Part shown: in pieces, positions 5,625 through 58,744 of the stretch
How the letters are laid out: each line of letters begins with the position of its first letter
Position numbering within the stretch: the first letter of the stretch is position 1
NCBI GenBank assembly: GCA_963762565.1
Contig: CAVXLD010000004.1
Coordinates: forward strand, 32,001 to 96,000
DNA: 64,000 nt
From: an uncultured Verrucomicrobiae bacterium
GTDB lineage: Bacteria; Verrucomicrobiota; Verrucomicrobiia; Chthoniobacterales; JAFAMB01
Direction of reading: 5' to 3'
Program-made: the position numbers and the translations under genes
Notes under the pieces: generated by a model
What the model saw: the letters and a program-made list of their open reading frames with translations, nothing else
Told to the model about the DNA's origin: nothing
The model's database searches: none

Positions 5625-5900
5625 TGATTGGTGATTAGTGAATGGCAATTGGTGGGGCTGATGGCTGGTAGGGCGAGGCTCCCGAAAGAGCGGGGGATTA
5701 ACCAAGGCTCAGCTGCTTAACCTTACCAATCAACAAGCGAGGCCTTTAAAACGCGCCGAGCCATGGTCTATCATGGGCCACGGCTCGGCGCGTCCCTCGG
5801 CCTCGCCCAACGATCGGTCCAGTACAGGCAATTTTCCCTTGATTAACTGCTGGGTCTTTCGGGGAGCCTCGCCCTCCCAATCACCAATCACCAATCACCT
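5625..5900. repeat. Family A long-loop REP doublet (GTAG-type) with GTGATTG heptamer flanks, copy A1
   Basis: GGTAGGGCGAGGCTCCCGAA at 5667 ... GCGCCGAGCC / GGCTCGGCGC ... GGAGCCTCGCCCTCCC at 5878; flanked by (GTGATTG)n and (CAATCAC)n. Confidence 0.9.
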
Positions 5901-5907
5901 TTCACGA

Positions 5908-6954
5908 ATGCCGCCCATTACCTCAGCGCCGTCGAAAACCCAGAGCTCGCCTGGCCACTGGCGCGCCACCGTCTGGACCTGGGTTCGCCGTAACGGTTTT
6001 GTCCTTGGGCTATTCACTGCGGTCATCATCGCTTTTTTGTTCCCGCAACCAGGCTCGAGAAAAGGGTGGTTACATCCCGAATTAATCAGCGATTTCGGCA
6101 TCGCGTTGATTCTGTTTCTGCAGGGCCTCTCAATGCCTCTGGAGAAAGTTAAACGCGGCGCAGGAAATTGGCGGCTGCATGTGACTATTCAGGTCTTTAC
6201 ATTCGTCATTTTTCCAATTGTCGGTCTCGCTTTTCAGCTGGTAGAGCCGCACATCTGGATCAACGAACCGCGCGGAATCCAAGAAGGTTTCCTGTATTTG
6301 TGTGTCTTACCTTCAACGGTATCAACGTCTGTTGTGTTAACCTCGGTCGCACGAGGAAATACTGCCGCTGCGATTCTTAGCGCTGCGTTTTCGAACATCG
6401 TCGGTGTCGTGCTGACGCCCTTGTTGGTTAGCTTCTTAATGCAGGCCACCGGCCAATCGGGCCCGATCGGCCCGCTTCTGTTTCAGATAACCTGTTTGAC
6501 GCTTCTTCCGTTCGCCGTGGGAGTTGGCCTTCGACGTTTTATCCAGGCTTGGATCGACGCCAACAAAGCATGGGTTAATCTGATCTGTAATTCCGTAATT
6601 CTATTTATTGTTTATACTGCGTTCTGCGACTCCGTGAGCGAACGAATCTGGGATAAATACGGCCTCGTTCTTACCGTGGGAGTACTTCTATCTGTCGTCC
6701 TCCTCTTCGCAATCATGTCGCTGTTGATTTATCTGACTTCCTTAGCCGCGAAGTTCAACCGGGAAGACGGGATCGCCGTTTACTTTTGTTCGGTGAAGAA
6801 AACGCTCGCCATGGGAGTGCCATTGGCAATGCTGATTTTCGGGTCTCGCGCTGACCTCAGCCTAATTCTTTTGCCGATCATGTTTTACCACCCACTGCAG
6901 TTGTTTGTGAACGGCCTGCTAGCGAACAGGTGGGCGCGTGAAGCGAAAACGTGA
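5908..6954 (+). CDS. Bile acid:sodium symporter family (SBF-like/YfeH) transporter
   Basis: Multi-TM protein with LCVLPSTVS and SVKKTLAMGVP motifs. Start trimmed to ATG 5908 because the upstream frame is repeat A1. Confidence 0.88.
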   Translation: MPPITSAPSKTQSSPGHWRATVWTWVRRNGFVLGLFTAVIIAFLFPQPGSRKGWLHPELISDFGIALILFLQGLSMPLEKVKRGAGNWRLHVTIQVFTFVIFPIVGLAFQLVEPHIWINEPRGIQEGFLYLCVLPSTVSTSVVLTSVARGNTAAAILSAAFSNIVGVVLTPLLVSFLMQATGQSGPIGPLLFQITCLTLLPFAVGVGLRRFIQAWIDANKAWVNLICNSVILFIVYTAFCDSVSERIWDKYGLVLTVGVLLSVVLLFAIMSLLIYLTSLAAKFNREDGIAVYFCSVKKTLAMGVPLAMLIFGSRADLSLILLPIMFYHPLQLFVNGLLANRWAREAKT

Positions 6955-7226
6955 TTGGTGATTAGTGATTGGTGGTTGGTGGGGCTGATGGCTGGTAGGG
7001 AGAGGCTCCCGAAAGAGCGAGGGATTGACCAAGGCTCAGCTAAGTAAACCTCACCAATCAACAAGCGAGGTCTATTAAGCGCGCCGAGCCGTGGTCTATC
7101 GTGGGTCACGGCTCGGCGCGACTCTCGGCCCCGCTCAACGACTGGTCCAGTGCAGGCAGTGTTCCCTTGATTAAGCGCTGGGTCTTTCGGGGAGCCTCGC
7201 CCTACCAATCACCAATCACCAATCAC
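6951..7226. repeat. Family A long-loop REP doublet, copy A2 (close direct copy of A1)
   Basis: Core 6994-7206 aligns by eye along its whole length with 5667-5878, with the same heptamer flanks. Confidence 0.9.
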
Positions 7227-7789
7227 GTCTCCCCGCCCCTCACTTCACCTGCAATCCCGCCGCATGCCTGCAACATCTCAGGCATCTCCCGGGGCGAGAC
7301 CACGACCGCGCCGGCTTTGGTTTGAAGATAGATCGCTTTTTGGAGCGTGGTGCAGGCGACGTGGAATTGTTCCTGGCGTCGTCGAGATCGACCGCCCGGA
7401 GTTTCCGGTGGTCGGGTGACGATCGCCCGGTATCGACCGTGAAAACCGAAGGGTCCATACGCACCAATCGCTTGAAAAGCAAAGGCCCGGCGAAGTGGTT
7501 GACGCTTCATTGCAATCTCGTCGACACCCAATATTTCGTAACTTTTATTGACTCCCAAACGACGCACGATCACTAAGGTGCTTCCGTCCACCCTATATTC
7601 GCGCGTTGAGGTCGCCCAGCTGATAAAGATCAACACCGCGCAAACTATCGCTAGCGCATAAAGGAGGACCGCTAATGGAGAAACATGCCCAAATCCGATC
7701 CAAAGGAATACGATCGGTGGGACAAAAATCGCCACCGTTATAACATTCGCCCAAAAGCTGAGCGGAGCCGGCCGAAAACGCATCCCCAA
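7223..7789 (-). CDS. Membrane protein with probable bacterial PH domain
   Basis: Two N-terminal TM helices, then YRVDGSTLVIVR, GPFGFHG and VVVSP typical of membrane-flanked bPH proteins. Confidence 0.6.
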   Translation of the reverse strand: MGMRFRPAPLSFWANVITVAIFVPPIVFLWIGFGHVSPLAVLLYALAIVCAVLIFISWATSTREYRVDGSTLVIVRRLGVNKSYEILGVDEIAMKRQPLRRAFAFQAIGAYGPFGFHGRYRAIVTRPPETPGGRSRRRQEQFHVACTTLQKAIYLQTKAGAVVVSPREMPEMLQACGGIAGEVRGGET

Positions 7790-7863
7790 TGCCTTAGCAG
7801 TAACGCACCTTACTGCAACTCACTTGTGAGGGGATTCGTGGCCCGTCGCACGGGGTGAGCCAA

Positions 7864-8067
7864 GTAATCAGTAAGACAGTAATCAGTGGTTAAGACGAAG
7901 CCGCGATAGGAGTAAGGCCAAGCCGTAACCAAGCTTTGTTGTTGAGGCGAGCCGCAAGTGCCGCTTAAGATTGATGCAGGATCCCTCAGCGTCTCAAAAA
8001 AATGGCTGGAGCGAGTGCCATCGAATGGATGCATGCCTTTCCACTGATTACTGATTGCTGATTACTG
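7864..8067. repeat. Inverted pair of GTAATCA heptamer arrays
   Basis: GTAATCAGTAAGACAGTAATCAGTGG at 7864 and CCACTGATTACTGATTGCTGATTACTG at 8041; same unit at about 26457 and 60757. Confidence 0.75.
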
Positions 8068-8108
8068 CTTGCTGGCGCGCCTCTCACCTTCACCTCTCAA
8101 CCTCTCCA

Positions 8109-10040
8109 ATGAAATTACTCGACTTCATCCTCGGCCGTCCGCTGGCAACCAGTGAAGACCAGCAAGAACGAGTTGGTTCAATCTCAGGTGTCTCGGTATT
8201 CGGTCTGGATGCGCTAAGCTCCGCGGCTTACGGACCGGAAGCGGCGCTCACTGTCTTGATCCCTCTGGGTGCGGTAGGGCTCGGTTTCGGGCTCCCCATT
8301 ACGATCGCGGTCTCCGCTATTCTGGCCATCGTTTATTTCAGTTATCGCCAGACAATCGCCGCTTACCCGGGCGGCGCAGGCTCCTACACAGTAGCCAAGG
8401 AGAATCTCGGTGATCGAGCCGGTTTGCTAGGCGCGGCCGCGTTAATGATTGATTACACACTAAATGTAGCAGTCGGTATTTCAGCCGGAATTGGCGCTCT
8501 GGTTTCCGCGTTCCCGGCGCTGCAGCCTTACACGGTCTGGCTGTGCTTAGGGGTGCTGGCGTTGCTCTCTTTCATGAATCTTCGCGGACTACGCGAATCC
8601 GGTCTCGCGTTCCTGCCGCCGACCTATCTTTTCGTTTTTACCCTGGGGATCGTGATCATCCTGGGAGTATTCCAGTCGCTGATTACCGGGCAACACCCGC
8701 AAGCAGTTATACCGCCGCCATCCGCCCCACAGGTAACAACAACAATTTCGCTCTGGCTTTTCCTCAAAGCGTTCGCTGCCGGCTGCACCGCTATGACCGG
8801 CGTGGAAGCCGTAAGCAATGGAGTACAAGCGTTCCGAGAACCGGTCGTAGGATCGGCTCGCAAGACGCTAACCCTTATCGTTGCCATCTTAATCCTGCTG
8901 CTGATCGGCGTGGCTTACCTCGTACAGGTATATCACATCAATGCCACCGACCCAGGATCGAGCCAGTATCAGAGTATCTTGTCCATGATGACTCAGGCCG
9001 TGGTCGGCCGCGGAGTCTTTTACTATATAACCATGGCTGCCGTGCTGTTAGTGCTCTGTCTTTCGGCGAACACTTCTTTTGCTGATTTCCCCCGGGTCTG
9101 CCGGACGATCGCTCAAGACGGCTATCTTCCTTATTCGTTCACCGTACGTGGCCGGCGCTTGGTCTTTACCGAAGGGATCATCTTACTGACGATATTGTCC
9201 GGTATCTTATTGTTTGTTTTCAACGGAGTAACCGACCGGCTGATCCCGCTGTTCGCAGTTGGGGCGTTCCTGGCGTTCACTTTGTCGCAAGCCGGCATGG
9301 TGATGCATTGGCTGAGAAAGAAGCAGCCAGGGGTAACCGGCAGCGTGATCCTTAATGCCATTGGAGCAGTCGCGACCGGTGTCACGTTTTTCATCGTCAT
9401 CGTTACGAAATTCGCTGAAGGCGCTTGGTTAGTGCTCCTGGTGCTGCCGGGTTTATACCTCTTCATGTTACTGATTCACCGCCATTACACGAAAGTTGGC
9501 GAAGAGCTCACGCTCACCCATGCGATCAAACTGAAACGGCCGCGCCCAATGATGGCGGTAATCCCGATCATGACCCTCAATTCGCTGGCCGAAAAAGCAC
9601 TGCAAATCGCGTACAGTCTCTCAGAAGAGGTAAGCGTCATTCATATTCAGCGGGAAAACAGCCAGCAAGATTTCTGCGAGGAATGGGAAAAACAGATTCA
9701 ACCCGCTATCAGCCAGGTTAACTTGCCGTTGCCACATCTGGAAGTAATCGAATCACCTTATCGACATGTGGTCGCTCCGACGCTGGATTACATCTGGCGC
9801 TTAGAGAAAGATAACCCGGACCGCACGATCGCTGTCCTGATCCCACAGTTAATCGAATCGCATTGGTACTACAGCTTTTTGCATAATCAGCGGGCAAGGA
9901 TCCTTCGGTCCGTCCTTCTGCTTAAAAGCATGAATCGTATCGTGATTGTGAACGTGCCTTGGCACATCCAAAAGCGAGATCCGGTCCGGCAAGCGACCAA
10001 AGCGCTTTGGGAAAAGTCGCCTTGTTGGCTGGACAATTGA
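8109..10040 (+). CDS. APC-family permease, KimA/YdaO-like (possible K+ transporter)
   Basis: DALSSAAYGPE, YPGGAGSY, TGVEAVSNG, LIPLFAVG and C-terminal SPYR/LHNQ motifs of the YdaO/KimA group. Confidence 0.85.
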   Translation: MKLLDFILGRPLATSEDQQERVGSISGVSVFGLDALSSAAYGPEAALTVLIPLGAVGLGFGLPITIAVSAILAIVYFSYRQTIAAYPGGAGSYTVAKENLGDRAGLLGAAALMIDYTLNVAVGISAGIGALVSAFPALQPYTVWLCLGVLALLSFMNLRGLRESGLAFLPPTYLFVFTLGIVIILGVFQSLITGQHPQAVIPPPSAPQVTTTISLWLFLKAFAAGCTAMTGVEAVSNGVQAFREPVVGSARKTLTLIVAILILLLIGVAYLVQVYHINATDPGSSQYQSILSMMTQAVVGRGVFYYITMAAVLLVLCLSANTSFADFPRVCRTIAQDGYLPYSFTVRGRRLVFTEGIILLTILSGILLFVFNGVTDRLIPLFAVGAFLAFTLSQAGMVMHWLRKKQPGVTGSVILNAIGAVATGVTFFIVIVTKFAEGAWLVLLVLPGLYLFMLLIHRHYTKVGEELTLTHAIKLKRPRPMMAVIPIMTLNSLAEKALQIAYSLSEEVSVIHIQRENSQQDFCEEWEKQIQPAISQVNLPLPHLEVIESPYRHVVAPTLDYIWRLEKDNPDRTIAVLIPQLIESHWYYSFLHNQRARILRSVLLLKSMNRIVIVNVPWHIQKRDPVRQATKALWEKSPCWLDN

Positions 10041-10047
10041 GGTGGCT

Positions 10048-10318
10048 TGGGGCGAGGTCTCCCGAAAGACCGAAACCCATCAAACAGAGCGATTTCATTT
10101 GCCGCCGTTCTTTCGTTTGCGAGGTCGACAGGCGTGCCGAGCCGGTCCCTGGGTGCGCCAAGTCTCCTGATTGCGCCAGGGAACGAACCCGGAAGAGATC
10201 TTTATTGCTGCTGCACCAGGGCCAGCTCGGCACGCCAACAGGCCACGTGAACCAAACAACCGCGGTACACCAATCCCTTCGCGATCGGTTTCACGTCTTT
10301 CGGGAGCCTCGCCCTACC
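10048..10318. repeat. Family A long-loop REP doublet, copy A3
   Basis: TGGGGCGAGGTCTCCCGAA ... GCCGAGCC ... GCTCGGC ... TTCGGGAGCCTCGCCCTACC between convergent genes. Confidence 0.85.
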
Positions 10319-10332
10319 AGTAAATCTACGAT

Positions 10333-12882
10333 TTACTGCGCTTCTGCCACTACCCCGCCGTCAGCCGAGAATTTCTTACCGAGGGCTGCTTCAGATCCTA
10401 GCAAGACGCTGACGCCGTAATCGTCAAGCTGGTTTATCTGCCGCAGACTCAAGAGCACCTTTAATGATTGGTTGAATTGAGTCGTGGCATCAGCTGTCTT
10501 ACCGGACGTCTGCAGGAGCTTGCCGGCTTGCAAGTAGCCATTAGCCAGAAATTCCTGCCAAGTTACATTCCGGCCATTCGTCTGAAGCAGACGCTCGAAG
10601 ATATCACAACTGACCTTGTAATATCCGAGTGCTTCTTGGCCTTTATCAGTAAGGGCCGTTGCTTCGGCTAAACGTTGGAAAGTCAGTGCTAGCTGCTGCC
10701 GGCGAACTGGGTTGGCCTCATCCCGAGAAACTAATGATTCACTAATCTCAAGACACCGCTGATAGCTGGCGCGAGCCTTTGCCAAGTTGCCATCTGCTCG
10801 GTACAGATCACCCGCCCGGCCCAAGCAGTCCGCTAAATCCTGTTGATAAACAGCCTCTCCCGGCGCCGCCGCCACTAAGCGTTCACAAATCTCCTGGCTC
10901 TGAGCGTACGCTTGTAAAGCAGCGGGGGTTTTATCCAGGTCTGCTAGTACACTGCCGTAATTTTGCAAAGAGACTGAAAACTGGTGCTCATACTTCTTTT
11001 CCTTAGAGTCTTGACTAGCCAGCTGTTGAGCAACCTCCACCGCTTTCTCCAACTTAGGCAAGGCCAAGTCCGGCTTCCCTTCTTCGCGTAAAATGCCGCC
11101 GACGTTTTGGTAAGCGACCGCTAGATCGAATCGTAGACTGCTGTCGGAGGAACTACCATGCAGGAGATTCTCGAACGTGGTTAATTCCTGTTGGTAGTAG
11201 GTCAAGGCATCTTCCATTTTGCCTTGCGCTTCCAGCACGTAGCCGATGCGTTCCTGGCAAATCGCTATATCTCGCTGCTGAGAGATGTCTCCAGGGCTGA
11301 GCTGCGCAAGTCTTTGGCCCGCCGCTAACTGATCAGTATAGGCACGAACTGCCCGGTCGAGGTCACCTGCTTTGACCTCCAGATCGCCAAGTTGATTGCA
11401 AATCTGCCGGACCCGCAGCCAAGCCTCCGGATTCTGTGCGTCCCGTTCCGCCAAAACGCGCAGAATATCGCGCGCCTGCTCAAACGGACCACGTGCTCCG
11501 GCCCAATCTTTTTGAGCCATGAAGGTGACGCCCAGCTTAACCAGAACTTTGGTCCACTCGCTCTTCGGTTCTACCTCTGTGGGTTTGGCCGAAGCGAGCT
11601 TTTCCCAGAGCCCAGCGGCCCGCTGGTAGTTTTCCATGGCCTGTCCGATCTTTCCTTGGGTCGAGAAGATGTTCCCCATCTTCAGAAGGTTTTGCGCCCA
11701 TTCTGCCACCCACTCATCCTTGGCCGGCTCCTGTTTGACCAGATCCTCGAGAAGCCGGCAAGCGTCTTGGTACGCATTAACGGCGCCGTCCAGGTTATTG
11801 TCGTCGGCAAGCAAATCACCCTGGTCGTTCAGAGCGGCCACCCGTAAAACTTGAACCGACGTATTTTGGGCTTCGATTCCGTTCTTTGCGTCATACGTTT
11901 CGACCGCTTTGAGCGACGGCTCCAGCAGATCCGCTCGCCGTACGGGTTTTAACTTTTCCCCGAGGTCGCTGACGATCTGGTGCATTAACTGCTCAGACTG
12001 CAATTTTGCTTCAATCGAGTCCCGAGCCGTTTTATCCGCTGCTGCCACTGAAGCCCGAGCGGTCTTTTCCGCATTCGTTTTTTGAGTACGAGCTACCGCC
12101 AGATTCGTTTCCGATTTTTGAAAACGAGAGAAGGTCACGCTGCCGAACGTTATCGCGGTCGCTAAAGTGGCCGCACTAACAAATGCAGTCAACGCGACGC
12201 CACGGCGTTCCCTACGCCATTTGGACCTCACTTCGGCTAGCCACTCATTGATATAAGATAGGATCTCCCGGCTGGCGACGGTGCCAAAACGGGTAAAGAA
12301 GTGGTCCGGCTCCAGCAAGGCGTTCCCTTTCGGGAAAGCATGAGGCCCTTCGGCGGGGAACTTCTCGCCCAACCGGAGGCGGAGCAATCGCTCAAACGTG
12401 GCCTCGAATTGCTCGTAATTGCGGTACGAATTGATACTGGTAGTAAAATTATTTTCCCACTCGAAATCGCGCTGGTCTACCTTGCCCAGGAGCAAGTCGA
12501 CCGCCTTCGACGGCGATACCATTTGGTTCATGGGAGACGTCGAATCAGCCGCATCGCTCTCGGCGTGGACGAAAACCAGAAAATCAGGAATTTTCCCATT
12601 CTCTCGCCTCGGCATCGCCTGGGCCACATCCTGGGGCATTCCGGGTTCCCGGCGTTCCCCACCCCAAACGCAGGATGATCGCCGTAAGACACAGGCAACC
12701 AAATCAAATTGTCGGGCAGAGGGGAACTTACTGTTTTCAGTCCATCGGCTAGACCAAAGCCAGAGCTCTAATTCGACTCTGGGTTTGAACTCCATTTCGA
12801 CACGAGCCATGGCTTCGCCGGCTCGCTCGCATTCCAAATCGGCATCGTCTGGTGCACAGATCAGGACCCGATATTTTGCCAT
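10333..12882 (-). CDS. Membrane-anchored TPR protein with DUF4062/TIR-like N-terminal domain
   Basis: N-terminal YRVLICAPDDADLECERA resembles the RIFISSPGDV start of STAND-associated domains; one TM helix (GVALTAFVSAATLATAITFG); long TPR-like array. Confidence 0.7.
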   Translation of the reverse strand: MAKYRVLICAPDDADLECERAGEAMARVEMEFKPRVELELWLWSSRWTENSKFPSARQFDLVACVLRRSSCVWGGERREPGMPQDVAQAMPRRENGKIPDFLVFVHAESDAADSTSPMNQMVSPSKAVDLLLGKVDQRDFEWENNFTTSINSYRNYEQFEATFERLLRLRLGEKFPAEGPHAFPKGNALLEPDHFFTRFGTVASREILSYINEWLAEVRSKWRRERRGVALTAFVSAATLATAITFGSVTFSRFQKSETNLAVARTQKTNAEKTARASVAAADKTARDSIEAKLQSEQLMHQIVSDLGEKLKPVRRADLLEPSLKAVETYDAKNGIEAQNTSVQVLRVAALNDQGDLLADDNNLDGAVNAYQDACRLLEDLVKQEPAKDEWVAEWAQNLLKMGNIFSTQGKIGQAMENYQRAAGLWEKLASAKPTEVEPKSEWTKVLVKLGVTFMAQKDWAGARGPFEQARDILRVLAERDAQNPEAWLRVRQICNQLGDLEVKAGDLDRAVRAYTDQLAAGQRLAQLSPGDISQQRDIAICQERIGYVLEAQGKMEDALTYYQQELTTFENLLHGSSSDSSLRFDLAVAYQNVGGILREEGKPDLALPKLEKAVEVAQQLASQDSKEKKYEHQFSVSLQNYGSVLADLDKTPAALQAYAQSQEICERLVAAAPGEAVYQQDLADCLGRAGDLYRADGNLAKARASYQRCLEISESLVSRDEANPVRRQQLALTFQRLAEATALTDKGQEALGYYKVSCDIFERLLQTNGRNVTWQEFLANGYLQAGKLLQTSGKTADATTQFNQSLKVLLSLRQINQLDDYGVSVLLGSEAALGKKFSADGGVVAEAQ

Positions 12883-13047
12883 TGGGCCACACCATCAGAA
12901 TTGGGGTTAGTTCAGCAACTATTTTTTTATGATATTTTAAGATATTACTCTGTAGCACAATGAAGTGCGCTGATTCCCCATAAGGCGAGGCTCAAGCCCA
13001 TATTCTTTAGAAGTACTACAGGTGGCTGGCGACAGTGTAGCGCTGCC

Positions 13048-13248
13048 CTAAATAATGAGCGACGGCCGGTTGGCTTCGGCCGACCGAACTTCTCGGGAAC
13101 CCACCGAACTGCCGCACTCCGTACAAAGATAATCGTAAATCTCTCTGTCGGGGAGGACTAGCAATAGCCGTTCTCGAACCGGGCGGGCGACTTTGCATTT
13201 CTGGCAGTACAGCGATGACGCTCGAAGTGTCTTAAATTGGTTCTTCAT
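13048..13248 (-). CDS. Small zinc-ribbon protein (66 aa)
   Basis: MKNQFKTLRASSLYCQKC...YLCTECGS, two CxxC motifs. The longer ORF call is repeat-derived. Confidence 0.75.
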   Translation of the reverse strand: MKNQFKTLRASSLYCQKCKVARPVRERLLLVLPDREIYDYLCTECGSSVGSREVRSAEANRPSLII

Positions 13249-13404
13249 ACCGGCCAAGTCCCTTACCCAGGGAAACTCCGCCGAATGGTCCGACGCGTCA
13301 ATGCTGAAGAAGCCAGGAGCCAGAATCCAGGAGCCAGGAGGGGGCGCTTCTCGCCTTGGCATGTGGCCCACTTTGACTCTATGATTCTGCCAGCTTCCAA
13401 TTCG

Positions 13405-13587
13405 GGGAGGGCGCGCTGCCTGTCCGACATAGCCTAAGGCATCCGGTCGATTTTTCTGCCAAAGCGGGCGACGTCGGATCCTCGCGCGCTGCGACGACTT
13501 GCCACAACCTAAAGGTGTATTTTCGTCTACGATCACAGCAAGTCCTCGACTTCCGTAGCCTCGGATCGCGGGGACGCGATCCCTCCC
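13405..13587 (+). repeat. Family B element B2 with nested family C insert (13419-13478)
   Basis: GGGAGGGCGCGCTG[CCTGTCCGACATAGCC...GGCGACGTCGGA]TCCTCGCGCGC ... GGATCGCGGGGACGCGATCCCTCCC. Confidence 0.88.
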
Positions 13588-13614
13588 GGGCAATGGTCTC
13601 CTAGCCCGTATTCA

Positions 13615-15303: not shown

Positions 15304-15308
15304 GTGAA

Positions 15309-15448
15309 GGTGAGAAGTGGGAAGTGAGAAGTGATTGGTGATTGGTGATTGGTAGGGCGAGGCTCCCGAACTACGATATAAATTTCGCGAAGCACCGCGT
15401 CTTCGACGAGCTGTCGGCAACTACGCCTGTCCGTGCGCCGAGCCGTGG
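15309..15448 (+). repeat. Family A single long-loop REP (A4) preceded by GTGAGAA/GTGATTG heptamers
   Basis: GGTAGGGCGAGGCTCCCGAA at 15351, closing GCGCCGAGCCGTGG at 15435. Confidence 0.8.
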
Positions 15449-15653
15449 CCCAGCGTGTCGAACCGCTGGGCGATGCGTCCCATAAGTCACATCAGTCCCA
15501 TAAGCCTATCCGTATCCGTCTGCACGCCTACCACGCCCCGCCTCATAGCCCGTTTCTAGCGCCCGATCCATCCACCAAACTCGTAACTTGCGAATCATGT
15601 TCGCAAGCCGGAGCTTACCCCGGCAACTGAAAATTAAACCTGGAATCTGTATC

Positions 15654-18876: not shown

Positions 18877-18886
18877 TCGACCCGGT

Positions 18887-29006: not shown

Positions 29007-29327
29007 GGAAGGGCGAGGCTCCCGAAAGAGCGAGCGGTTGAACAAGGCTCAGCTGCCTAAACCTCGCCAACTACAAGCTAGGTACACAAGCGCGCCGAGC
29101 CATGGTCTATCATGGGCCACGGCTCCGACTTCGCTCTCACTTTGTACCTAGATCACTAACAGCGCCGAAAAGCTACGTCGGACAAGTCGGCGCGTCTTTT
29201 GGCGTTGGTCGATGATAGGTTGAGTGCAGGCGATTTTCCCTTGACTACAGACTGGGTCTCTCAGGAGCCTCGCCCCGCCAATCGCCAATCACCAATCACC
29301 AATCACCAATCACCAATCACCAATCAC
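29007..29327. repeat. Family A doublet A5 (A1/A2 subfamily) with nested family C insert at 29124-29186
   Basis: Aligns with A1 except for 63 bp TCCGACTTCGC...GCTACGTCGGACAAG inserted in the GGC^TCGGCGCG arm; long (CAATCAC)n tail. Confidence 0.88.
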
Positions 29328-30007
29328 ACCTCCACACTTTCCCCGGGCTGCAGGATCGCAACCTTCGCTTTGCCTTCGGCGAGGCGGGCAAACTCTTTCG
29401 GGTCGCCAAATAGAGGCGGCCACGTGCCGTAGTGGATCGGGACGACGACCGTTGGATGGAGGAATTCGACCGCTTTGGCTGCGTCCTTTGGTCCCATAAC
29501 GAAATGTTCGCCAATGGGCAGAAACGCGAGGTCGATCGCCGCATCGTCCCCGATCAATTTCATGTCCGAGAAAAGAGCAGTATCACCGGCGTGAAAAACG
29601 GTTTTGCCTTCTACCTGAATAATCACTCCGGCCGGTTCTCCAAGATAGATGGGACGCCCATTCTCATCCGTTACCGATGAGCTGTGGATCGCTTGGGTGA
29701 ATTTGACGGCGCCGAAGGGATATTTGCACCAGCCACCGTGATTCTGGGGTGACGCCTTTGCGCCCTGGGTACCCAACCAACTTGCCAACTCAAAAGTCGA
29801 AATGATTGTGGCGCCCGTACGTTTGGCAATGGGCAACGCGTCCGCAATATGATCGCTGTGCCCGTGCGTCAGCACGATAAAATCCGGCTCCAAATCATCT
29901 GCTTTTGCACCCGCTTTAGGATTCCCCGTGAGGAACGGATCGATAAGAATCTTCGTTTTATCGGTCTCGAGATAAACCGTCGCGTGTCCAAGAAAGGTCG
30001 CTTTCAT
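29324..30007 (-). CDS. Metal-dependent hydrolase, metallo-beta-lactamase fold (UPF0173-like)
   Basis: LIDPFL, THGHSDH, HAGDTALFSDM, PIHYGTWP. Confidence 0.92.
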   Translation of the reverse strand: MKATFLGHATVYLETDKTKILIDPFLTGNPKAGAKADDLEPDFIVLTHGHSDHIADALPIAKRTGATIISTFELASWLGTQGAKASPQNHGGWCKYPFGAVKFTQAIHSSSVTDENGRPIYLGEPAGVIIQVEGKTVFHAGDTALFSDMKLIGDDAAIDLAFLPIGEHFVMGPKDAAKAVEFLHPTVVVPIHYGTWPPLFGDPKEFARLAEGKAKVAILQPGESVEV

Positions 30008-30066: not shown

Positions 30067-30187
30067 GGGAGGGATCGCGTCCTCGCGATCCGTTGTCGTC
30101 GAAGCCGAGGACGGTTCTAATCGCGGACGAAAATACATCGTTGGGTGCTGACACGTCCTCGCGGCGCGCGGGGACGCGCGCCCTCCC
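30067..30187 (-). repeat. Family B element B3
   Basis: Reverse-orientation copy with both terminal hairpins intact. Confidence 0.88.
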
Positions 30188-34354: not shown

Positions 34355-34450
34355 GGTAGGGCGAGGCTCCGGAAAGAGCACACGACCGTCGCAGGGGCGA
34401 AAGATGTCTCGTCGCTATAGAGGATGCAACACCGGAACGCTGCCGAGCCG
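34355..34450 (+). repeat. Family A single long-loop REP (A6)
   Basis: GGTAGGGCGAGGCTCCGGAA ... GCTGCCGAGCC in the divergent promoter region. Confidence 0.78.
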
Positions 34451-36121: not shown

Positions 36122-36328
36122 GGTAGGGCGAGGCTCCGGAATAGCCGGGAAGTGCTCGCAGCGCGCGATCCATTTCGTTGGTGTATCGGACGCGACACCT
36201 GAAAGCTGCCGAGCCGTGGGTGGCGCCACCCACGGCTCGGCAGCTCTTAGGCTTTGCGTCCCATGAACCACTGAAACGCCATTTCGCCTTGCGAATCTGT
36301 TTCGGTCATTCCGGAGCCTCGCCCTACC
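36122..36328. repeat. Family A long-loop REP doublet, copy A7
   Basis: GGTAGGGCGAGGCTCCGGAA ... GCTGCCGAGCCGTGGGTGGCGCCACCCACGGCTCGGCAGC ... TTCCGGAGCCTCGCCCTACC. Confidence 0.9.
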
Positions 36329-38855: not shown

Positions 38856-39141
38856 GGTGGGGCGAGGCTCCCTCATGCTGAAAGAGCCTCGCAAAGCGGT
38901 TGATCCTCAATCATCGCCGGTCCTCAACTCCGAAAAACTGCCGAGCCGCTGGCCCAGCACATACATCACCCACCGCTTACCAGGAACGTCCCACAAATCT
39001 TGATAAGACTAGGCGGCATTAACCCGTTCGAATCGCGCAACACCGCGACTCGGCAAGCGTTCCAGTCTAACAGAACCGTAGGGCCTGTCCCGGACTGAAC
39101 CCTTCGCGGAAGAGTTGGGTTCTACGGGAGCCGCGCCTACC
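38856..39141. repeat. Family A doublet, degenerate copy A8
   Basis: GGTGGGGCGAGGCTCC ... CTGCCGAGCCG ... GACTCGGCA ... GGGAGCCGCGCCTACC. Confidence 0.72.
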
Positions 39142-40220: not shown

Positions 40221-40535
40221 GGGGAGGGCGCGCTGCCCCGCGCGCCGCGACGACGTTCCACCACCCAGCGGCGTATTTTCTTCCAGGATCAGAACACGTC
40301 CCCGGTTTCGGTCACCACTTCGTTCTTGGGTTGAGTGCAAGGCCCATCGCCCGGGAGGGATCGCGTCCTCGCGATCAGTTGTTACCGAAGCCGAGGACGT
40401 GTTGTGACCGCGGAAGAAAATACGCCGCCGGGTGGTGGCACGTTCTCGCGGCGCGCGGGGATCCGACGTCGCCCCGTTGGCAGAAAAATCGATCGCATGC
40501 CTTAGGCTATGTCGGACAGGCAGCGCGCCCTCCCC
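40221..40535. repeat. Inverted pair of family B elements (B5), the right one with family C insert at 40462-40520
   Basis: Truncated + copy 40221-40318 facing a complete - copy 40353-40535; internal regions are reverse-complementary. Confidence 0.85.
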
Positions 40536-46439: not shown

Positions 46440-46530
46440 GGAGGGGCGTTGCATTCCGCGCTGTAGTTCTATCGCTCGTCGGCACCTACTAAACATATCA
46501 GCCTCCACGCTCGGATAGACGCGACGCCCC
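46440..46530 (+). repeat. Left long-loop GGAG REP flanking the RAYT gene
   Basis: GGAG-GGGCGTTGC ... GCGACGCCCC; inverted copy at 47101-47189. Confidence 0.82.
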
Positions 46531-46539
46531 GGGAAAGCA

Positions 46540-47000
46540 TCACCACGACAGACGGACCATTTCTCCCTGGAACGGCCAATCATCCGGATGATCAACCAAG
46601 CCATGGCGTACCGGGTTCCACCGAACATAAATCCATTTGGACTCATAGGCGGCTGAACCAAGAAGTTGTCGGTCCAAAAACTTCGTTGCCAGATTGGCCG
46701 GTCCGCGTATCGCAACCACCGTCGAGTCACATAGCCTTTCCATTTGGCGACCCAATCGGGCAAAGAAACAAAGGAACTATCGTTTTCTCCGACAAACAGA
46801 TGAATATGCTCCGGCATGATAACGTAGCGACCAACCGGATAGTCATCATGAAAATGCCAGGCGTCTCGTAAGAGAGAGTGCATTTCGTCGCAGGCGAGGA
46901 TTTGTTTTCGGTTCTTCGTGCAGATTGTTAGGAGCAAGATGATCGCTTCGCGTTCCAGCGAAAGAAGATGAGGAGGGTGCTGTCTCGGGCGAGATATCAT
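46540..47000 (-). pseudogene. REP-associated tyrosine transposase (RAYT/TnpA-REP, HUH Y1), frameshifted near 46675
   Basis: LTICTKNR, YVIMPEHIH (HUH), KWKG, IWQRSFW in one frame; DR..., YVRWNPVRHGLV..PDDWP in the -1 frame. One base is missing at TTTTTGGAC. Confidence 0.88.
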
Positions 47001-47100
47001 AACTCCATATTATCAGGTTATGATAGTCTGACACTGTTTTTTCAGGTGCAAAAGATGGCGAACGTATCTCCTCCATCAACGCTTGGCGGGGTGGTTACCA

Positions 47101-47189
47101 GGGCGTCGCGTCTATCCAAACGTGCGAGCAGCAACGTTTACGGGCGTCGATAAACGTCAGAACTACAACGCGAAATGCAACGCCCCTCC
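47101..47189 (-). repeat. Right long-loop GGAG REP flanking the RAYT gene
   Basis: GGGCGTCGCGTCTATCC ... AGAACTACAACGCGAAATGCAACGCCCCTCC, patchy reverse complement of 46440-46530. Confidence 0.82.
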
Positions 47190-49259: not shown

Positions 49260-49261
49260 AG

Positions 49262-49489: not shown

Positions 49490-49500
49490 ATCATTCGCGG

Positions 49501-50580: not shown

Positions 50581-50589
50581 TCTGTCGTT

Positions 50590-51519: not shown

Positions 51520-51532
51520 GTGGCAGGAACCT

Positions 51533-51772
51533 GGGAGGGCGCGCAGCTTGTCCGACGTAGCCTCTGGTCTTTTGCTTGTTCGCGGCTCTGGTGGGCGAAG
51601 TCGGATCCTCGCGCGCTGTGTTCGGGTCTGCAACTCCTGCCCTCAGCAAACCCTGACCAGCGGAACACGCGCGGCTTCGAAAAGAACGGATCGCGAGGAT
51701 CCGACGTCGCCAATCCTGGGGAAGAGCAAGCCAGCAACAGACGGCTATGTCGGACAGGCAGCGATCCCTCCC
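51533..51772 (+). repeat. Family B element B6 with family C inserts in both hairpins (51547-51605 and 51700-51758)
   Basis: GGGAGGGCGCGCAG[CTTGTCCGAC...GTCGGA]TCCTCGCGCGC ... GGATCGCGAGGA[TCCGAC...GTCGGACAGG]CAGCGATCCCTCCC. Confidence 0.88.
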
Positions 51773-51787
51773 AATGTTCCCCCTTAA

Positions 51788-53443: not shown

Positions 53444-53451
53444 ATTGTCCT

Positions 53452-55269
53452 TTATTTCGGCGCAGCAGTGCCCTCTTCCGTTTCCAAGTCGAGGTACTTG
53501 AAATTGTGAACGTCCAGAGCCAGCGGATTCCAGTTTTTCACGCTCGGATCGAGTAGATAAACCCGCGTATACCAGTAAATACAAACAACGGGCGGCTCGC
53601 TTAAAAACAACCGTTCTGCATCATGGAGAACATCAAAACGTTTCTGCGGGTCACTGGTATGCGCGGCTTGGTCTATGAGCTGATCATAGGTTGAATTGCT
53701 CCAGCCCGTAGCATTGTTGGCGTTCCCGGTTGTCCATATATTCAGAAACGTGGCCGGATCCATGAAGTCGCCGATCCAGCCGCCCCGGATAATGTCATAA
53801 TTCATCGAATTCTGACTTTGCAGATACACTTTCCATTCCTGATTTTCGATGCCGACATCAATGTTCAATTCTTGCTTCCACATCTGTTGGATCGCCTCCG
53901 CGATCACCCGATGGGCTTCGTGGGTATTGATCAGGATGTTGAACTTCGGAAAACCCTTGCCGTTCGGATAGCCGGCTTCTGCCAGCAATTGCCGGGCTCG
54001 CTCCGGGTCATAATGAATCACATCGAGCGGCTCATAACCATCCATTCCCGGCGGCACTAAACCAGCCTCGGGGCGCTGCTTGGCCCTGGTAATGTTGGTC
54101 ACAATCGCCTCCCGGTTTACTGCGAAATTCAGCGCCAATCGAACCTTAGGATTATCCAATGGCTTTCGGTTAGTATTCAGACGGTAAAAGTAGTCGGCTA
54201 CGAAAGGATCGATCCGAATCAGCTCGGGATGTTCCCGCCGGTAATAAGGAATCCGATCTAACGGAACGTCCAAGGTCTTGTGCAGTTGTCCGGCCTCGAA
54301 TGCTCGCTCTGCGGTATCGGAATTCTCGATCGAATAAAAGTTGATCCCGTTCAATTTGACGGTCGTTGCATCCCAGTAAAGCGGGTTACGCACGACTTCG
54401 ATCACATCATTTTGGCGCCAGATCTTTAATTTAAAAGGCCCTGTTCCCACGTAGTTGCTGGGCAAGGTCCACTTGGTACCGCGCTCATCCATCCTACCGA
54501 ACTTGAGGATTGTCGGCATATGAACTGGAAACCAGCAGGGGTACAGAATTGCGGATAACAAATACGGCGTTGGTCCGATCAGTTCTATCTTGAGCGTGTG
54601 AGGATCCTCAGCGTGAACGCCGACCTGATCAAAGTCGGTTAATTTTTGATCGTAGTAATCCTTCGCGCCCTTAATGATGAACAGGGCTTCGGAATATACT
54701 GCGCCTAAACTCGCTGTCAGAATACGCCGGTAAGAATCGACAAAGTCCTGCGCGGTTACCGGATCCCCGTTTGACCACTTCGCATTCTCGCGAATATGGA
54801 ATGTCCATAAGGAATAATCTTCATTGTGATCCCAATGATCGGCCAAACCAGGCACCACCTTCGCTTGATCGTATTCATCGTTCTCAACCAGGCCGTCCAT
54901 CAATGAATTGATGATTTCGTCTTCAGTCTGGCCTTGGCAAATTTGTGGATCCAGAGTTTGCGGCTCCGATATCTCATTGATGAGCAGGATCTTGTGCCGG
55001 TTTGCTTCTTCTAGAGTCCGGCTCATGGCGAATAGAGAAGAAGCAGGGGCAAGGAAGAGACAAACGGCGGTGAGTAAAGCGGCGTGTCGAAGCCGAGCCC
55101 CGGGAGGGATCGCGTCCCCGCGATCCGTTGTCACCGAAGCCCAGCGCGTTTTGTTACCATGGACGAAAATATGGCCCTGAGTTAGAACACGTTCTCGCGG
55201 CGCGCGGGGACGCGCGCCCTCCCCTGCAATGGGTCTCGATTCATTACAAGGGCTAGGACCAAACTTCAT
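53452..55269 (-). CDS. oppA: Oligopeptide ABC transporter substrate-binding protein, tandem paralog, with repeat B7 in frame in the N-terminus
   Basis: Same motifs; ATG at 55269 overlaps the upstream peptidase stop (TGATG). Confidence 0.88.
   Translation of the reverse strand: MKFGPSPCNESRPIAGEGARPRAPRERVLTQGHIFVHGNKTRWASVTTDRGDAIPPGARLRHAALLTAVCLFLAPASSLFAMSRTLEEANRHKILLINEISEPQTLDPQICQGQTEDEIINSLMDGLVENDEYDQAKVVPGLADHWDHNEDYSLWTFHIRENAKWSNGDPVTAQDFVDSYRRILTASLGAVYSEALFIIKGAKDYYDQKLTDFDQVGVHAEDPHTLKIELIGPTPYLLSAILYPCWFPVHMPTILKFGRMDERGTKWTLPSNYVGTGPFKLKIWRQNDVIEVVRNPLYWDATTVKLNGINFYSIENSDTAERAFEAGQLHKTLDVPLDRIPYYRREHPELIRIDPFVADYFYRLNTNRKPLDNPKVRLALNFAVNREAIVTNITRAKQRPEAGLVPPGMDGYEPLDVIHYDPERARQLLAEAGYPNGKGFPKFNILINTHEAHRVIAEAIQQMWKQELNIDVGIENQEWKVYLQSQNSMNYDIIRGGWIGDFMDPATFLNIWTTGNANNATGWSNSTYDQLIDQAAHTSDPQKRFDVLHDAERLFLSEPPVVCIYWYTRVYLLDPSVKNWNPLALDVHNFKYLDLETEEGTAAPK
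55102..55223 (-). repeat. Family B element B7 inside the 5' end of the oppA ORF
   Basis: Both terminal hairpins intact; translates as GEGARPRAP...TTDRGDAIPPG. Confidence 0.88.
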
Positions 55270-57389
55270 CACATTGTCCCTGACTCAATGCCAACCTTCT
55301 TTAGAAAAGGTTGCAATGATTGTTTGCGACCTAGAAAACGCTGGACAGATTCGGATACATCCCGCGAATTCCCGACTGCATAAATATCATCGCGTAACCG
55401 GCGTCCGACGGTGGGATCAAGAAATCCGTCTGGAGCCTTTTGAAAAACGGATGCCATATCCGCCGCGATTGCGTCCGCCCAGGCGTATCCGTAGTAACCG
55501 GCATCATAGCCGTCAAAAAGATGTCCGAACGACGCGAGCATGGCACTGCTGGGATCCCCCGGGAAGAATACGTCATCTAGAACCGAATTGGCGTAGCCGT
55601 TAAGATTCGCCTTCTGCTCCGCCGTCAGAGGCATATGCAGTTTCAGATCCATGATAGCAAAAGAAAGCTGACGACGATACCAGGAGGCCTTGGTAGCGAG
55701 ATCCGCTTCTTTCAGCTTTGACAAGATCTCGGCCGGAATCTTTTTGCTGGGATCTCGATAATCTGCGGCGAAACTATCCAATACGTTCTTATCCCAGGTG
55801 AAGTATTCCAACATCTGGGACGGCGCCTCAACGAAATCCTGAGGTACATTCAGCCCGGAAAAACTCGAATAATCCACCGTAGTGAGGATCGCATGCATGG
55901 CATGACCGAATTCGTGAAAGATGGTGGTTACTTCCTGATGATCCAACAAGGATGGCGCGTCCGCGGACGGCGACGGGAAATTGCAGATCAGCTCAGCTGT
56001 CGGTCGCTGATATTTTCCGTCGGCCAGAAGTTTGCCGTCGATCCCGGAAAAGGTAGCAAAATGGTTATACTTTCCGGGTCTCGGGAATAGGTCCATGTAC
56101 AGCAGCCCAAGCGGTTGGCTGGTGGCCGCATCAATAATGGCGTAGAGCTTCAGGTCATCCACATATTTTGCCGGTGACTCCAACGGTTCGATCTTGATCC
56201 CAAAGATCCTTTCATACACCGTGAACATTCCCTGCAGAACCCGATCCATGGGGAAATAGACTCGCAAAGCTTCCTCATCGATCGCGTATTTTTGCTTCTC
56301 GAGCTGATTCGAGACAAAGTACCAATCCCAAAGGTTCACCTCCGGATTGGTGGAGCCGGGGAATCCTGCCTTTATCTTCTTAAACTCTGCTATTTCCTCG
56401 TCGTATTTTGGCTGAAGACCCGACTTGAGTCTTTCCAGGAAATCCAAAGCGTTGCTCCCTGATTTAGCCATTCTGGTCTCAGTCTGATAATCCGCCCAAG
56501 ACTGGTAGCCGAGGAGCGTTGCCAGTTGTGCCCGCAAAGAAATGACTCGCGCCGCAATCGGGAGATTCTTGTCTTTAGCCCGGGTGTCTCGCGCGATTTG
56601 TAGTTTTTTGCGTGTCTCTTCTTTGACGCAATTCGAAGCGACCGTCATAAACTCCGGCGCAACATTCGCATCGACAGTATATTGATCGTCGCCGGTTTTT
56701 ACCTGAGCAAGGAAGTTATCCGGCACTCCATCCAAATCATTTTTCGAAAACGTTAGTTTGGCGCTGGCATTATTGCTGTTAACCGCAAAATGCGTATCCC
56801 AAAACGCGATTTGTTTCCGTAAGCCTTCGACCTCTTTCCGTTTCGTTTCGTCGAGCGTTAATCCAGCTCGTTTATAGTCCCGCAACGTAAAGTCTAACAG
56901 ACGCTGTTCTACCGGCTTAAGCTGCGGTTTGGTGTCGGCAAATGCACGAACCGATTGATAGACGTCTTCACGATAGTCGATCCCAACCACAAACTCGTTT
57001 AGCTTCTGGACGGCGTCGATGGCCGCAGCCCGCATCTTAGGGTCGGGATGCGCCTGCTCGATAATATCGAGCCGGTGATGAACGGTCTGCAGCTCGAACG
57101 TCACGTCATCCAGGGCTCGAATTGTATTCTCGAAAGTAAGCTGGCCGGCGGTAAGCTTGCCGATATCGTCCAATTTTTTATTGGCAGACGCGACCGCCGC
57201 ATCGGCGTCGGCGGCGATTTGCTCCGGCGTGGTTTCCCAGTTCAGAGGGGTAAGTAACGTGTTAAACTTGGCCGCTTGTTCCTGAAGCTCAGCCAGGATT
57301 GGCTGGGCCTTCTGTGGATTGTGGTCCGACTGGGCAATGCTGATTAAGGGGAACAGCAGGGTCGCAAATGCGCTAAGGCTGGATTTCAT
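55269..57389 (-). CDS. M3 family metallopeptidase (thimet oligopeptidase-like), with signal peptide
   Basis: DLFPRPGKYNH, FHEFGHAMH (HEXXH), DFVEAPSQMLE, YDAGYYGY. Start ATG 57389. Confidence 0.93.
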   Translation of the reverse strand: MKSSLSAFATLLFPLISIAQSDHNPQKAQPILAELQEQAAKFNTLLTPLNWETTPEQIAADADAAVASANKKLDDIGKLTAGQLTFENTIRALDDVTFELQTVHHRLDIIEQAHPDPKMRAAAIDAVQKLNEFVVGIDYREDVYQSVRAFADTKPQLKPVEQRLLDFTLRDYKRAGLTLDETKRKEVEGLRKQIAFWDTHFAVNSNNASAKLTFSKNDLDGVPDNFLAQVKTGDDQYTVDANVAPEFMTVASNCVKEETRKKLQIARDTRAKDKNLPIAARVISLRAQLATLLGYQSWADYQTETRMAKSGSNALDFLERLKSGLQPKYDEEIAEFKKIKAGFPGSTNPEVNLWDWYFVSNQLEKQKYAIDEEALRVYFPMDRVLQGMFTVYERIFGIKIEPLESPAKYVDDLKLYAIIDAATSQPLGLLYMDLFPRPGKYNHFATFSGIDGKLLADGKYQRPTAELICNFPSPSADAPSLLDHQEVTTIFHEFGHAMHAILTTVDYSSFSGLNVPQDFVEAPSQMLEYFTWDKNVLDSFAADYRDPSKKIPAEILSKLKEADLATKASWYRRQLSFAIMDLKLHMPLTAEQKANLNGYANSVLDDVFFPGDPSSAMLASFGHLFDGYDAGYYGYAWADAIAADMASVFQKAPDGFLDPTVGRRLRDDIYAVGNSRDVSESVQRFLGRKQSLQPFLKKVGIESGTM

Positions 57390-57503
57390 ATGAGATCCGA
57401 TCGAGAGGGGCGGCATCGATGGGATGCCAAATATGGAAGGGGTCGGGTAGGTTGTAAAGGATTGGTAAGGGGAGGCGCAAGACCCCGGGGCGTGGCCGAT
57501 TTT

Positions 57504-57598
57504 GGTGGGGCGAGGCTCCCGAACGACCGAAATAGTTTCACAGAGGGACACGCTACCCCCTGATACCGCCTTCGGTGGTTCGGGACCCTCGCCCCACC
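57504..57598. repeat. Shortened family A element (A9), outer arms only
   Basis: GGTGGGGCGAGGCTCCCGAACGACCGAA ... TTCGGTGGTTCGGGACCCTCGCCCCACC. Confidence 0.78.
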
Positions 57599-57627
57599 AA
57601 ATGGGGCCTAGCCCCAGGCACACCGAC

Positions 57628-58389
57628 CTACCCTTTGCCCGGCGAACGAGAGAGTTTCTGGATCGCGTCACGCAGTTCAGCCGCCCGTTCGTAAGCCTCA
57701 TCTGCAATCGCGCGTTCCAAATCTCTTTCCATCAATTCCAACGGACTTAATGGAAGGTTCGCTTTAACCTCGGACAGCCATTCATTCAAAAAGGCAAGCT
57801 CCGAGCTGGTTTCGATCCATTCTGGCTGGCTGATTGATCGGTAGAAATTTTCGATCTGTTGAATCCCGCTCTCAATGACCCGGATCGCTTGTCCGACTCG
57901 TCCACCCTGGACCTCAATCGATGCCCGAGCCCGCGTATTCATCATCACGATGTAGGGACGAAATTGTTCGAATGCCCATCTGGATTCCTCTTCTCGAACA
58001 TGATTCGTCACAAAATCGCACACTTCGATATTTCGATCGGTATCCCGGACAACGTTCGGATAATCCTGCAACTGAAAAAGACTCAAGTAACGATGATAAT
58101 ACTGCACTGCCTCCTGCTGTAGGGCGACAAGATCGCCATCACCCAGCTCATACGTGGTACCCCGAGTCTGCGCCATACTGGCTCGCGACTGGTGGTATTG
58201 GAGCAACGATTCATATCCGAACGGTCGCTCGCCGTCCGGTCGACCCTGCAATTCCATCTGGATAAGGCCGAGATCAATCCGAAGCTGCAGCTTTTCACGT
58301 CCATCGTTCCCCACGATCTTACGCGCTTTCACCTGTCCGGGTTCATGCGACCACCCGTCCAACAAGTTGTTCAAGTCCAGATTGCTCAC
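57628..58389 (-). CDS. UvrB/UvrC motif-containing protein
   Basis: C-terminal LERAIADEAYERAAELRD UVR motif; N-terminal LQLRIDLGLIQME..GRPDG. Start probably GTG 58389. Confidence 0.8.
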   Translation of the reverse strand: MSNLDLNNLLDGWSHEPGQVKARKIVGNDGREKLQLRIDLGLIQMELQGRPDGERPFGYESLLQYHQSRASMAQTRGTTYELGDGDLVALQQEAVQYYHRYLSLFQLQDYPNVVRDTDRNIEVCDFVTNHVREEESRWAFEQFRPYIVMMNTRARASIEVQGGRVGQAIRVIESGIQQIENFYRSISQPEWIETSSELAFLNEWLSEVKANLPLSPLELMERDLERAIADEAYERAAELRDAIQKLSRSPGKG

Positions 58390-58443
58390 TCCCGCGGAAT
58401 ATCGAAGTAGGTTGGGAAATGTCAAAAGGGGGAAACGGGAGGA

Positions 58444-58744
58444 GCCAGGAGCTAGAATCTAGGAGGGCGTGCGGCGTGAAACGCCCGGTAGGGCGAGGCT
58501 CCCGAATAGCCAATCGGTTTAGCCGAAGCATTTCTGTAGCACGCAGCCCCGCCGCAGTGTTACGCCGTGAAACGCGCCGAGCCGTGGTATACCGTGGGCC
58601 ACGGCTCGGCGCGTCTTTAGACCTTGCACATTGACCTCTTGCCGTCTGTGCGGTTTACCCTTGGTGAATCGCACAGCTTTTCGGGAGCCTCGCCCCACCA
58701 AATTGGGGACCACACGCCCTCCTAGCTCCTAGATTCTAGCTCCT
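58444..58744. repeat. Family A doublet A10 (58487-58699) nested in a CTAGGAG/CTCCTAG heptamer palindrome
   Basis: AGGAGCTAGAATCTAGGAGGGCGTG ... CACGCCCTCCTAGCTCCTAGATTCTAGCTCCT surrounds a full doublet. Confidence 0.87.

Follow-up and report, generated by a model that had tools for sequence, protein, structure and literature searches.

In the published texts on Pseudomonas fluorescens SBW25, hundreds of intergenic inverted doublets of conserved repetitive extragenic palindromic (REP) sequences, termed REPINs, accompany a single, vertically inherited REP-associated tyrosine transposase (RAYT). The variable DNA of these REPINs keeps a fixed length with no two copies identical; it is placed between a pair of intact short REPs and contributes to the hairpin (PMC3337134, PMC3116915, bioRxiv 10.1101/2021.07.10.451892). 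For the REPs and bacterial interspersed mosaic elements (BIMEs) of Escherichia coli, the accounts drawn on here describe elements of 29–37 nt with a GTAG foot, a short lower stem that contains a paired mismatch, an HUH/tyrosine enzyme (TnpAREP group 2, PDB 4ER8), a REPtron layout, and a folded upper stem whose removal abolishes binding (PMC3333891, PMC8266576); the upper stem-loop is presented as structural, with sequence change tolerated in vitro (PMC8266576). The survey of Di Nocera et al. (2013) covers GTAG- or GTGG-tagged palindromes and their head-to-head dimers, including members from the Planctomycetes, Verrucomicrobia and Chlamydiae (PVC) group, the long-looped families GTAG-14 and GTAG-15, 'TIRtrons', an unpaired GA in the stem of GTAG-24, and genomes with several repeat-specific RAYTs each (PMC3733652). 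Here we analyse family A, a repeat found in a 64,000-nt stretch of DNA (the window) from an uncultured Verrucomicrobiae bacterium and throughout the genome to which it belongs (G000). We consider it likely that family A is a REPIN family with a RAYT of its own that probably copies it. Where the short REP has a 4-nt loop, family A has about 74 nt of DNA that is inherited, drifts in sequence and probably stems from decayed head-to-tail REPs.

Family A shares the SBW25 traits named above except the placement of the variable DNA and its part in the hairpin: unlike the SBW25 REPINs as described, it carries about 74 nt within every REP, dimer partners have loops just 45% alike, and the central spacer is separate. 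It has the foot, enzyme type and REPtron layout of the E. coli system and a proposed lower stem with a similar mismatch, yet its upper part measures 74 nt and has no predicted conserved fold. The tagged palindromes, head-to-head dimers, GA in the proposed stem and multiple RAYTs per genome are those of the Di Nocera families; in contrast, the longest loops in the text of that survey measure 9–15 nt, or up to 27 nt when self-complementary, and its figures and supplements may also bear on this point. [quoted passage not shown] A literature search of the running text of articles returned no report of 70-nt REP loops, in keeping with a sequence-only reading of the window that had not recognised the architecture among described REP classes. 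The novelty is the placement of fixed-length variable DNA inside the REP loop; such DNA between the two REPs of a REPIN is already known.

The gap denotes the nucleotides between GGCTC of the left arm and GAGCC of the closing arm, and the loop those inside the longer stem proposed below. The sequence-only reading had reported gaps of 72–77 nt in the left units of nine window loci and of 75–77 nt in right units, and had proposed a genome-wide search of loop lengths. All of these gaps are present as given, including those of the imperfect right units at 10317 and 29278, and the genome-wide distribution is narrow rather than broad. Among 539 left arms with at most one mismatch, 423 were followed by an exact closing arm with no nested second arm, and 418 of these had a gap of 69–78 nt (the others being 81–85 nt in three, 42 nt in one and 5 nt in one); 101 had no exact closing arm inside 200 nt and 15 had a nested arm. 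An exact-pattern search returned 375 matches and its reversed control none. A unit is about 94 nt long with a loop of 73.7 ± 1.7 nt (n=373), and 453 of 490 arms start with GTAG or GTGG, the tetranucleotide foot of GTAG-type REPs. The genome holds a single short copy of the REP, so family A does not fit the description of REPs as elements of 20–40 nt with a loop of a few bases.

The exact long-loop pattern occurred in all five congeners (26–262 copies; reversed controls 0) and in two further genomes of the same taxonomic family (3–4 copies), with no match in the other 33 genomes searched. These two genomes (G020 and G014, other genera; L250–L255) also have short-loop matches (9 and 8), and their long-loop copies, which share the family-A skeleton, are either remnants of an older spread or the result of transfer. 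A GTDB scan gave 117 loci, of which the 80 listed were sorted by eye. Of these 80, twelve were long-loop units, all titled Verrucomicrobiota or Chthoniobacterales; 17 were flagged with an intact short REP, most being head-to-tail tandems from other phyla; the rest look like chance matches.

The sequence-only reading had raised an HUH enzyme as one possibility, and the cognate RAYT bears out such a link. It lies outside the window (G000:C10:17378-17833, minus strand) as an intact, single-copy gene for a protein of 152 residues, with an inward-facing long-loop unit on either side. The protein scored 84.5 bits against NCBIfam NF047646 (cut-off 80) and matched E. coli TnpAREP (4ER8) at E 6e-7. A Pfam Y1_Tnp search of the genome missed it, returning 12 hits of which none was flanked by family A; it was located via a congener's protein. 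As expected for vertical inheritance, a RAYT sits at the equivalent locus in three congeners (G002, G003 and G004): the G002 orthologue is likewise flanked on both sides, and those of G003 and G004 lie at contig ends with the downstream long-loop unit seen. The gene was not found in the 81% complete G005 (E≤1e-20), and no orthologue was seen in G001.

The closest relatives of this RAYT, from other genera and 60–62% identical, are flanked by a short REP with identical arms; these arms with a 5-nt gap (4-nt loop) had matches in 23 of 61 genomes, with up to 107 copies. A midpoint-rooted tree of 39 RAYTs, excluding matches below 125 residues and duplicate loci, placed the long-loop enzymes in one clade (support 100/100) nested in a 91/92 clade whose five other members are all flanked by short REPs. 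No insertion or deletion (indel) separates the long-loop from the short-loop enzymes. Because the long-loop clade nests among short-loop RAYTs, the long loop is most likely the derived state.

Resembling REPIN–RAYT systems, in which an inverted doublet is the replicating unit, 348 of the 443 family-A units sit in 174 inverted dimers with the GTAG/GTGG feet outside; one further pair has the opposite arrangement and one is in tandem. About half of the dimers have a centre of 18–20 nt that prolongs the closing arms into a hairpin, and in the others it measures about 43–111 nt. Among 137 cases in which two dimers had one loop at least 72% alike, the other loop reached 60% or more in 74%, compared with a background of 1.4%. 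Since similar dimers share both loops, the dimer is the copied unit. Only 8 of the 443 units lie deep inside long open reading frames (ORFs), where about 227 were expected, as befits a high-copy extragenic repeat. Family-A sites are gained and lost between species: in a repeat-masked synteny comparison, 44 G004 elements could be placed from both sides in G000 (21 more were unplaceable), at 29 sites without family A, several of which carry another repeat family, 14 sites with it and one with an arm only. One 96-nt contig in run X6 lacks window segment 36113-36340 and thus holds an empty allele of the 36123 dimer; no direct repeat is visible in this single short contig. The missing segment extends 10 and 13 nt past the GTAG feet and has a 6-nt inverted repeat at both ends, a lone and weak observation from which the mobile unit may extend beyond the feet. 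At least four left arms elsewhere (C1:301666, C1:66508, C11:82805 and C12:257823) run into one common AT-rich sequence with no loop, which suggests an insertion sequence targeting the repeat.

The loops had appeared unrelated between loci, a view that is overturned by a positional skeleton shared over their full length (mean pairwise identity 0.395 versus 0.285 when shuffled; median identity to the nearest neighbour 0.62 versus 0.44). The loops change by substitutions and by indels of 1–2 nt, and the arms hardly at all: in 81 close paralogue pairs, 20.7% of loop sites differed and 1.2% of arm sites. A contig from a strain-level relative spanning the 36123 dimer carries 15 changes in 143 loop positions, two in the centre and none in 44 arm positions, with no indel, and in nine orthologous G003–G004 pairs (one double-counted) the loops were 71% identical (range 47–87%). 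Against the masked genome at E≤1e-4, 7 of 443 loop cores found a match; six of the matches were damaged family-A copies and the seventh was 22 nt adjoining a family-B repeat. A phage search with one dimer and a plasmid search with one dimer returned just chance hits of 21–22 nt. The non-homologous segments matching foreign or chromosomal DNA that sequence capture would leave were not seen in these searches. Because the skeleton is shared, inheritance is in place and neither of the two dimers searched matched anything foreign beyond chance, the loops are inherited, drifting DNA and not captured cargo. As DNA they have no excess structure (mean z +0.15) and no covarying helix, the strongest column links fitting register shifts of two subfamilies; a candidate inner helix of GGCC with GGCC was absent from the covarying columns. 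Loop positions 23–27 form a purine-rich patch with T at about 1%, next to positions that are near random, and a GNA mini-hairpin occurs at this patch in some copies only.

We claim drift and not hypermutation because the loop rates relative to synonymous sites are mixed. In the strain-level contig the 15/143 loop changes compare with 5/210 at third positions and 2/116 at fourfold sites (Fisher P 0.002 and 0.005), the P value rising to 0.08 if the neutral rate is set at 7%. Between G000 and G004 the identity of variable columns was 0.35 versus 0.53 at fourfold sites, a comparison in which some sites were probably re-inserted. Pointing the other way, 10 differences were counted across a dimer span of 251 nt in a second contig, from a run whose coding difference is about 2%, and G003–G004 loops stand at 0.71 versus 0.64 for fourfold sites.

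The sequence-only reading had suggested a ruler-like constraint. Length is indeed conserved while sequence is near saturation; the narrow spread itself, however, is explained without a ruler. In the close pairs, which were drawn from the 70–79 class so that large indels are censored, 63 of 64 indels were 1 nt, and a random walk of such steps yields a spread of 1.2–1.7 nt, matching the observed ±1.7 nt. Long central spacers, compared in seven alignments, had diverged too far for indel sizes to be read. Selection is needed only for the near absence of larger deletions: a gap of 6–68 nt occurred in just 1 of 423 two-armed units, and no intermediate loop (gap 15–45) was present in the four congeners searched. 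Helical phasing was rejected, as the loop classes lie 23 and 36 nt apart, which are not whole turns.

As to where the loop came from, we lean towards a head-to-tail REP pair that has lost its inner arms. When the 16 nt at the 5' end of the short REP were compared with 361 non-redundant loops, they matched best at the register predicted by this origin, right before the closing arm (0.378 versus at most 0.316 at 44 other offsets; P 0.002 with shuffled queries). A near-complete first REP still opens seven long units, the intact tandems among the GTDB loci have a similar span, and in the loop consensus the bases of the two would-be local hairpins are now A-rich. Tandem amplification by a RAYT is itself a model put forward in the literature (PMC3333891). 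The earlier reading had named alignment of all loops to one decayed MITE interior as a result that would refute it; the loops do largely align to one decayed ancestor, which resembles a tandem of REPs more than a MITE.

The same relatives bear on the stem. REPs beside related RAYTs, those of long-loop family D among them, retain GGC-GA...GA-GCC, and their inner three pairs switch jointly between GGC/GCC, GAA/TTC, AAA/TTT and AAG/CTT. This makes GGC-GA-GGC/GCC-GA-GCC the likely stem of family A; pairing in it would account for the GCC preceding GAGCC being 99% fixed, and the GGCTC/GAGCC stem of the sequence-only reading is probably not the one recognised. We infer that the arms pair across the loop.

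Several observations weigh against parts of this interpretation. Six single units fold like shuffles (z −0.8 to +1.3) and the 8-bp stem is predicted in none; the best fold of a dimer is a long rod in which like arms pair, left with left and closing with closing, its ends and centre pairing strongly and its loops only patchily. None of 19 family-A copies with an altered left arm has a compensating change. Conservation of the arms is partly ascertained by the search design; partners found blind to the left arm had at most one mismatch in 11 nt in 138 of 157 cases. The branch uniting long- and short-loop RAYTs falls below the strict mark of the tree-building tool, and the root is a midpoint. The register test followed the sighting of the likeness in the consensus, which makes its P value optimistic, and the sequence behind the first-REP remnant is unlike the flank behind the closing arm. 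The start of the loop also resembles the 3' flank of family C through a weak shared motif, beyond which family-A loops have no homology to those of other families; this motif may reflect recombination between families.

The folding results would be expected if the dimer were linked to the RAYT but its arms never paired over the loop, the enzyme or a host protein taking the left arm as a terminal repeat and the closing arms only as a central hairpin, and the 'loop' being a fixed-length, variable REPIN spacer. No other fold comes near the rod in stability (−59 to −75 kcal/mol), the classical spacer of family B in the same genome is equally long (71.6 ± 1.8 nt), and fixed-length variable REPIN spacers are already published. 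We nevertheless think this arrangement unlikely: the closing arm is retained in partnerless units flanking the RAYT and in dimers with unpaired centres of 45–110 nt, the two arms are exact halves of the short REP served by sister RAYTs, family D has a compensated stem over about 50 nt, and forcing the stem costs merely 0–1.8 kcal/mol in the three units so treated. Retention of the elements mainly as RNA, as 3' untranslated region structures or small RNAs whose loop length is set by an RNA-binding protein or RNase, seems very improbable. It would suit their nearly exclusive intergenic placement and the wide proposal, found in the text consulted, that REPs act at mRNA ends (PMC3733652), but the loops lack excess structure and covarying helices, an inverted dimer gives the same reading from either strand, and the arms are already accounted for by the link to the RAYT. 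Rfam gave no match in the window, and family A was not classed as a structured RNA.

The sequence-only reading had also suggested capture of cargo by an HUH enzyme. In a fuller form of this idea, every move of the element would bring new DNA into the loop, captured or templated by the RAYT, and the loops would be cargo, guides or a record of foreign DNA. Loop diversity is extreme, a neighbour at 90% identity or more existing for only 3% of loops; loops at some syntenic sites are no more alike than random paralogues; and TnpAREP is described as joining strands and has been proposed to pick up flanking DNA (PMC3333891). Set against this are homology along the whole loop, gradual substitution in place, co-duplication of each loop with its dimer partner, almost no match in the masked genome, only chance hits in the phage and plasmid searches made with one dimer each, and none to Rfam in the window. 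We regard the capture of cargo as largely refuted and give it hardly any credence.

The short REP from which family A would derive reads GTAG-GGC-GA-GGC-loop-GCC-GA-GCC. On single-stranded DNA the outer arms would pair over the loop, giving a stem of 8 bp that carries tandem G.A mismatches and has the tetranucleotide foot below it, as RAYT biochemistry would predict. The RAYT would bind this stem, cut by means of its tyrosine and now and then place a copy of the entire dimer at another intergenic site. Most of the loop would be a sequence-free linker with two constrained patches, CCGAA beside the stem and the purine run near position 23–27, and copies with large deletions would cease to be copied or kept. 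[quoted passage not shown]

The family-A elements of the window are listed in Table 1, together with members of families B and F. The whole 5668 dimer folds as a rod at −59 kcal/mol. The right unit at 10224-10317 has one mismatch in its closing arm, and a small hairpin cassette (about 29127-29186) has inserted into the closing arm of that at 29278; the motif of this cassette is matched at 189 places genome-wide, most of them in other settings. Tandem arrays of 7 nt (GTGATTG type) abut many elements, in the window at 5625-5665, 6950-6990, 15310-15350 and 29280-29330, and metagenome contigs of relatives tend to end at such arrays. The listed ORF 5773-6954 starts within the 5668 dimer; its transporter-like match runs from residue 110, and its true start is probably downstream of the listed one.

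Table 1. Family-A, family-F and family-B elements in the window (positions in nt; strand in brackets)
Element	Positions	Strand	Units and gaps	Remarks
Family A, compact dimer	5668..5877		left 5668-5762 (+), gap 76; right 5782-5877 (-), gap 77	19-nt centre
Family A, compact dimer	6995..7205		6995-7090 (+), gap 77; 7110-7205 (-), gap 77	paralogue of 5668 dimer
Family A, dimer with long centre	10048..10317		left 10048-10143 (+), gap 77 (hand count); right 10224-10317 (-), gap 75	damaged left arm in left unit
Family A, single long-loop unit	15352..15444	+	gap 74	
Family A, dimer	29008..29278		left 29008-29101 (+), gap 75; right (-) from 29278, gap 76	5668 subfamily
Family A, single long-loop unit	34356..34449	+	gap 75	
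Family A, compact dimer	36123..36327		36123-36215 (+), gap 74; 36234-36327 (-), gap 75	
Family A, left unit with decayed partner	38857..39140		38857-38947 (+), gap 72; partner 39048-39140 (-)	
Family A, collapsed dimer	57505..57597		two left arms face to face	both closing arms and centre deleted; absent from the sequence-only reading
Family A, compact dimer	58488..58698		58488-58583 (+), gap 77; 58603-58698 (-), gap 77	
Family F, REPtron	46440..47189		frameshifted RAYT-like gene ~46550-47000 (-)	gene between inward-facing REPs; frameshift as seen in this assembly
Family F, long-loop REPs	46440-46529, 47101-47189	+, -	loops 68 and 67 nt	
Family B	3013-3133, 13405-13586, 30068-30187, 31078, 40222-40534, 55103-55223			

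Three further families flanking RAYTs in this genome, C, D and F, have long variable loops. Those of C measure 34.2 and 70.2 nt with a minor class near 57, those of D 32.3 nt and those of F 68.8 nt. Family C has 389 left arms and a 9-bp stem, its loops falling into classes of 34–36, 57–60 and 68–73 nt, and insertion of a small hairpin into the 34 class accounts for the 57 class; it occurs at G000:C1:579877 (L012) and genome-wide, and in congeners tandem arrays flank the family-C RAYT. Family D (G000:C7:542253), which flanks its own RAYT, has the GGC-GA foot of family A, an extended stem and a variable loop of 31–34 nt in 51 of 57 arms. Of the 19 left arms of family F in this genome, 14 are followed by loops of 67–71 nt, and intact relatives of the family-F RAYT occur in congeners. 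Family B is a classical heterodimeric REPIN of two different 4-nt-loop REPs with a spacer of 68–75 nt and has no assigned RAYT.

These sizes (73.7, 70.2, 68.8, 34.2 and 32.3 nt, with the family-B spacer at 71.6) resemble both footprints of an SSB tetramer (about 65–70 and 35 nt). According to the account drawn on here, the footprint of E. coli SSB is about 35 or 65 nt, a 70-mer is bound by one tetramer, and in the wrapped mode DNA entry and exit lie side by side (bioRxiv 10.1101/2020.12.05.412478). The genome has one SSB gene (G000:C10:65419-65733). The REPs of this lineage might be fitted to the host SSB, the loop serving as a sequence-free landing pad and SSB as the ruler of REP and REPIN lengths; fully wrapped SSB would then draw the two arms close to each other and offer the RAYT the stem rather than melt it. 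We offer this as a speculation with rather long odds against it: the match is post hoc, the RAYTs of families C and F are related, and the 57-nt class and the central spacers of family A do not fit. An SSB–RAYT link was not reported in the literature searched; the 'SSB' strings met in PMC3333891 belong to 'ssBIME', and the text consulted in PMC3686654 has no bearing on the matter.

If the arms pair as we infer, family A would widen the range of RAYT recognition to hairpin halves 74 bases apart, with no added enzyme domain. One published REP search model admits loops of 2–5 nt only (PMC6006769), and because of this limit long-loop families would escape it or be taken for terminal repeats. For the question, not settled in the REPIN texts consulted, of why variable REPIN DNA holds its length as its sequence changes, the long-loop and short-loop versions and their closely related enzymes form a clean natural pair. 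Should the loop be only tolerated filler, family A would be a curiosity of repeat evolution.

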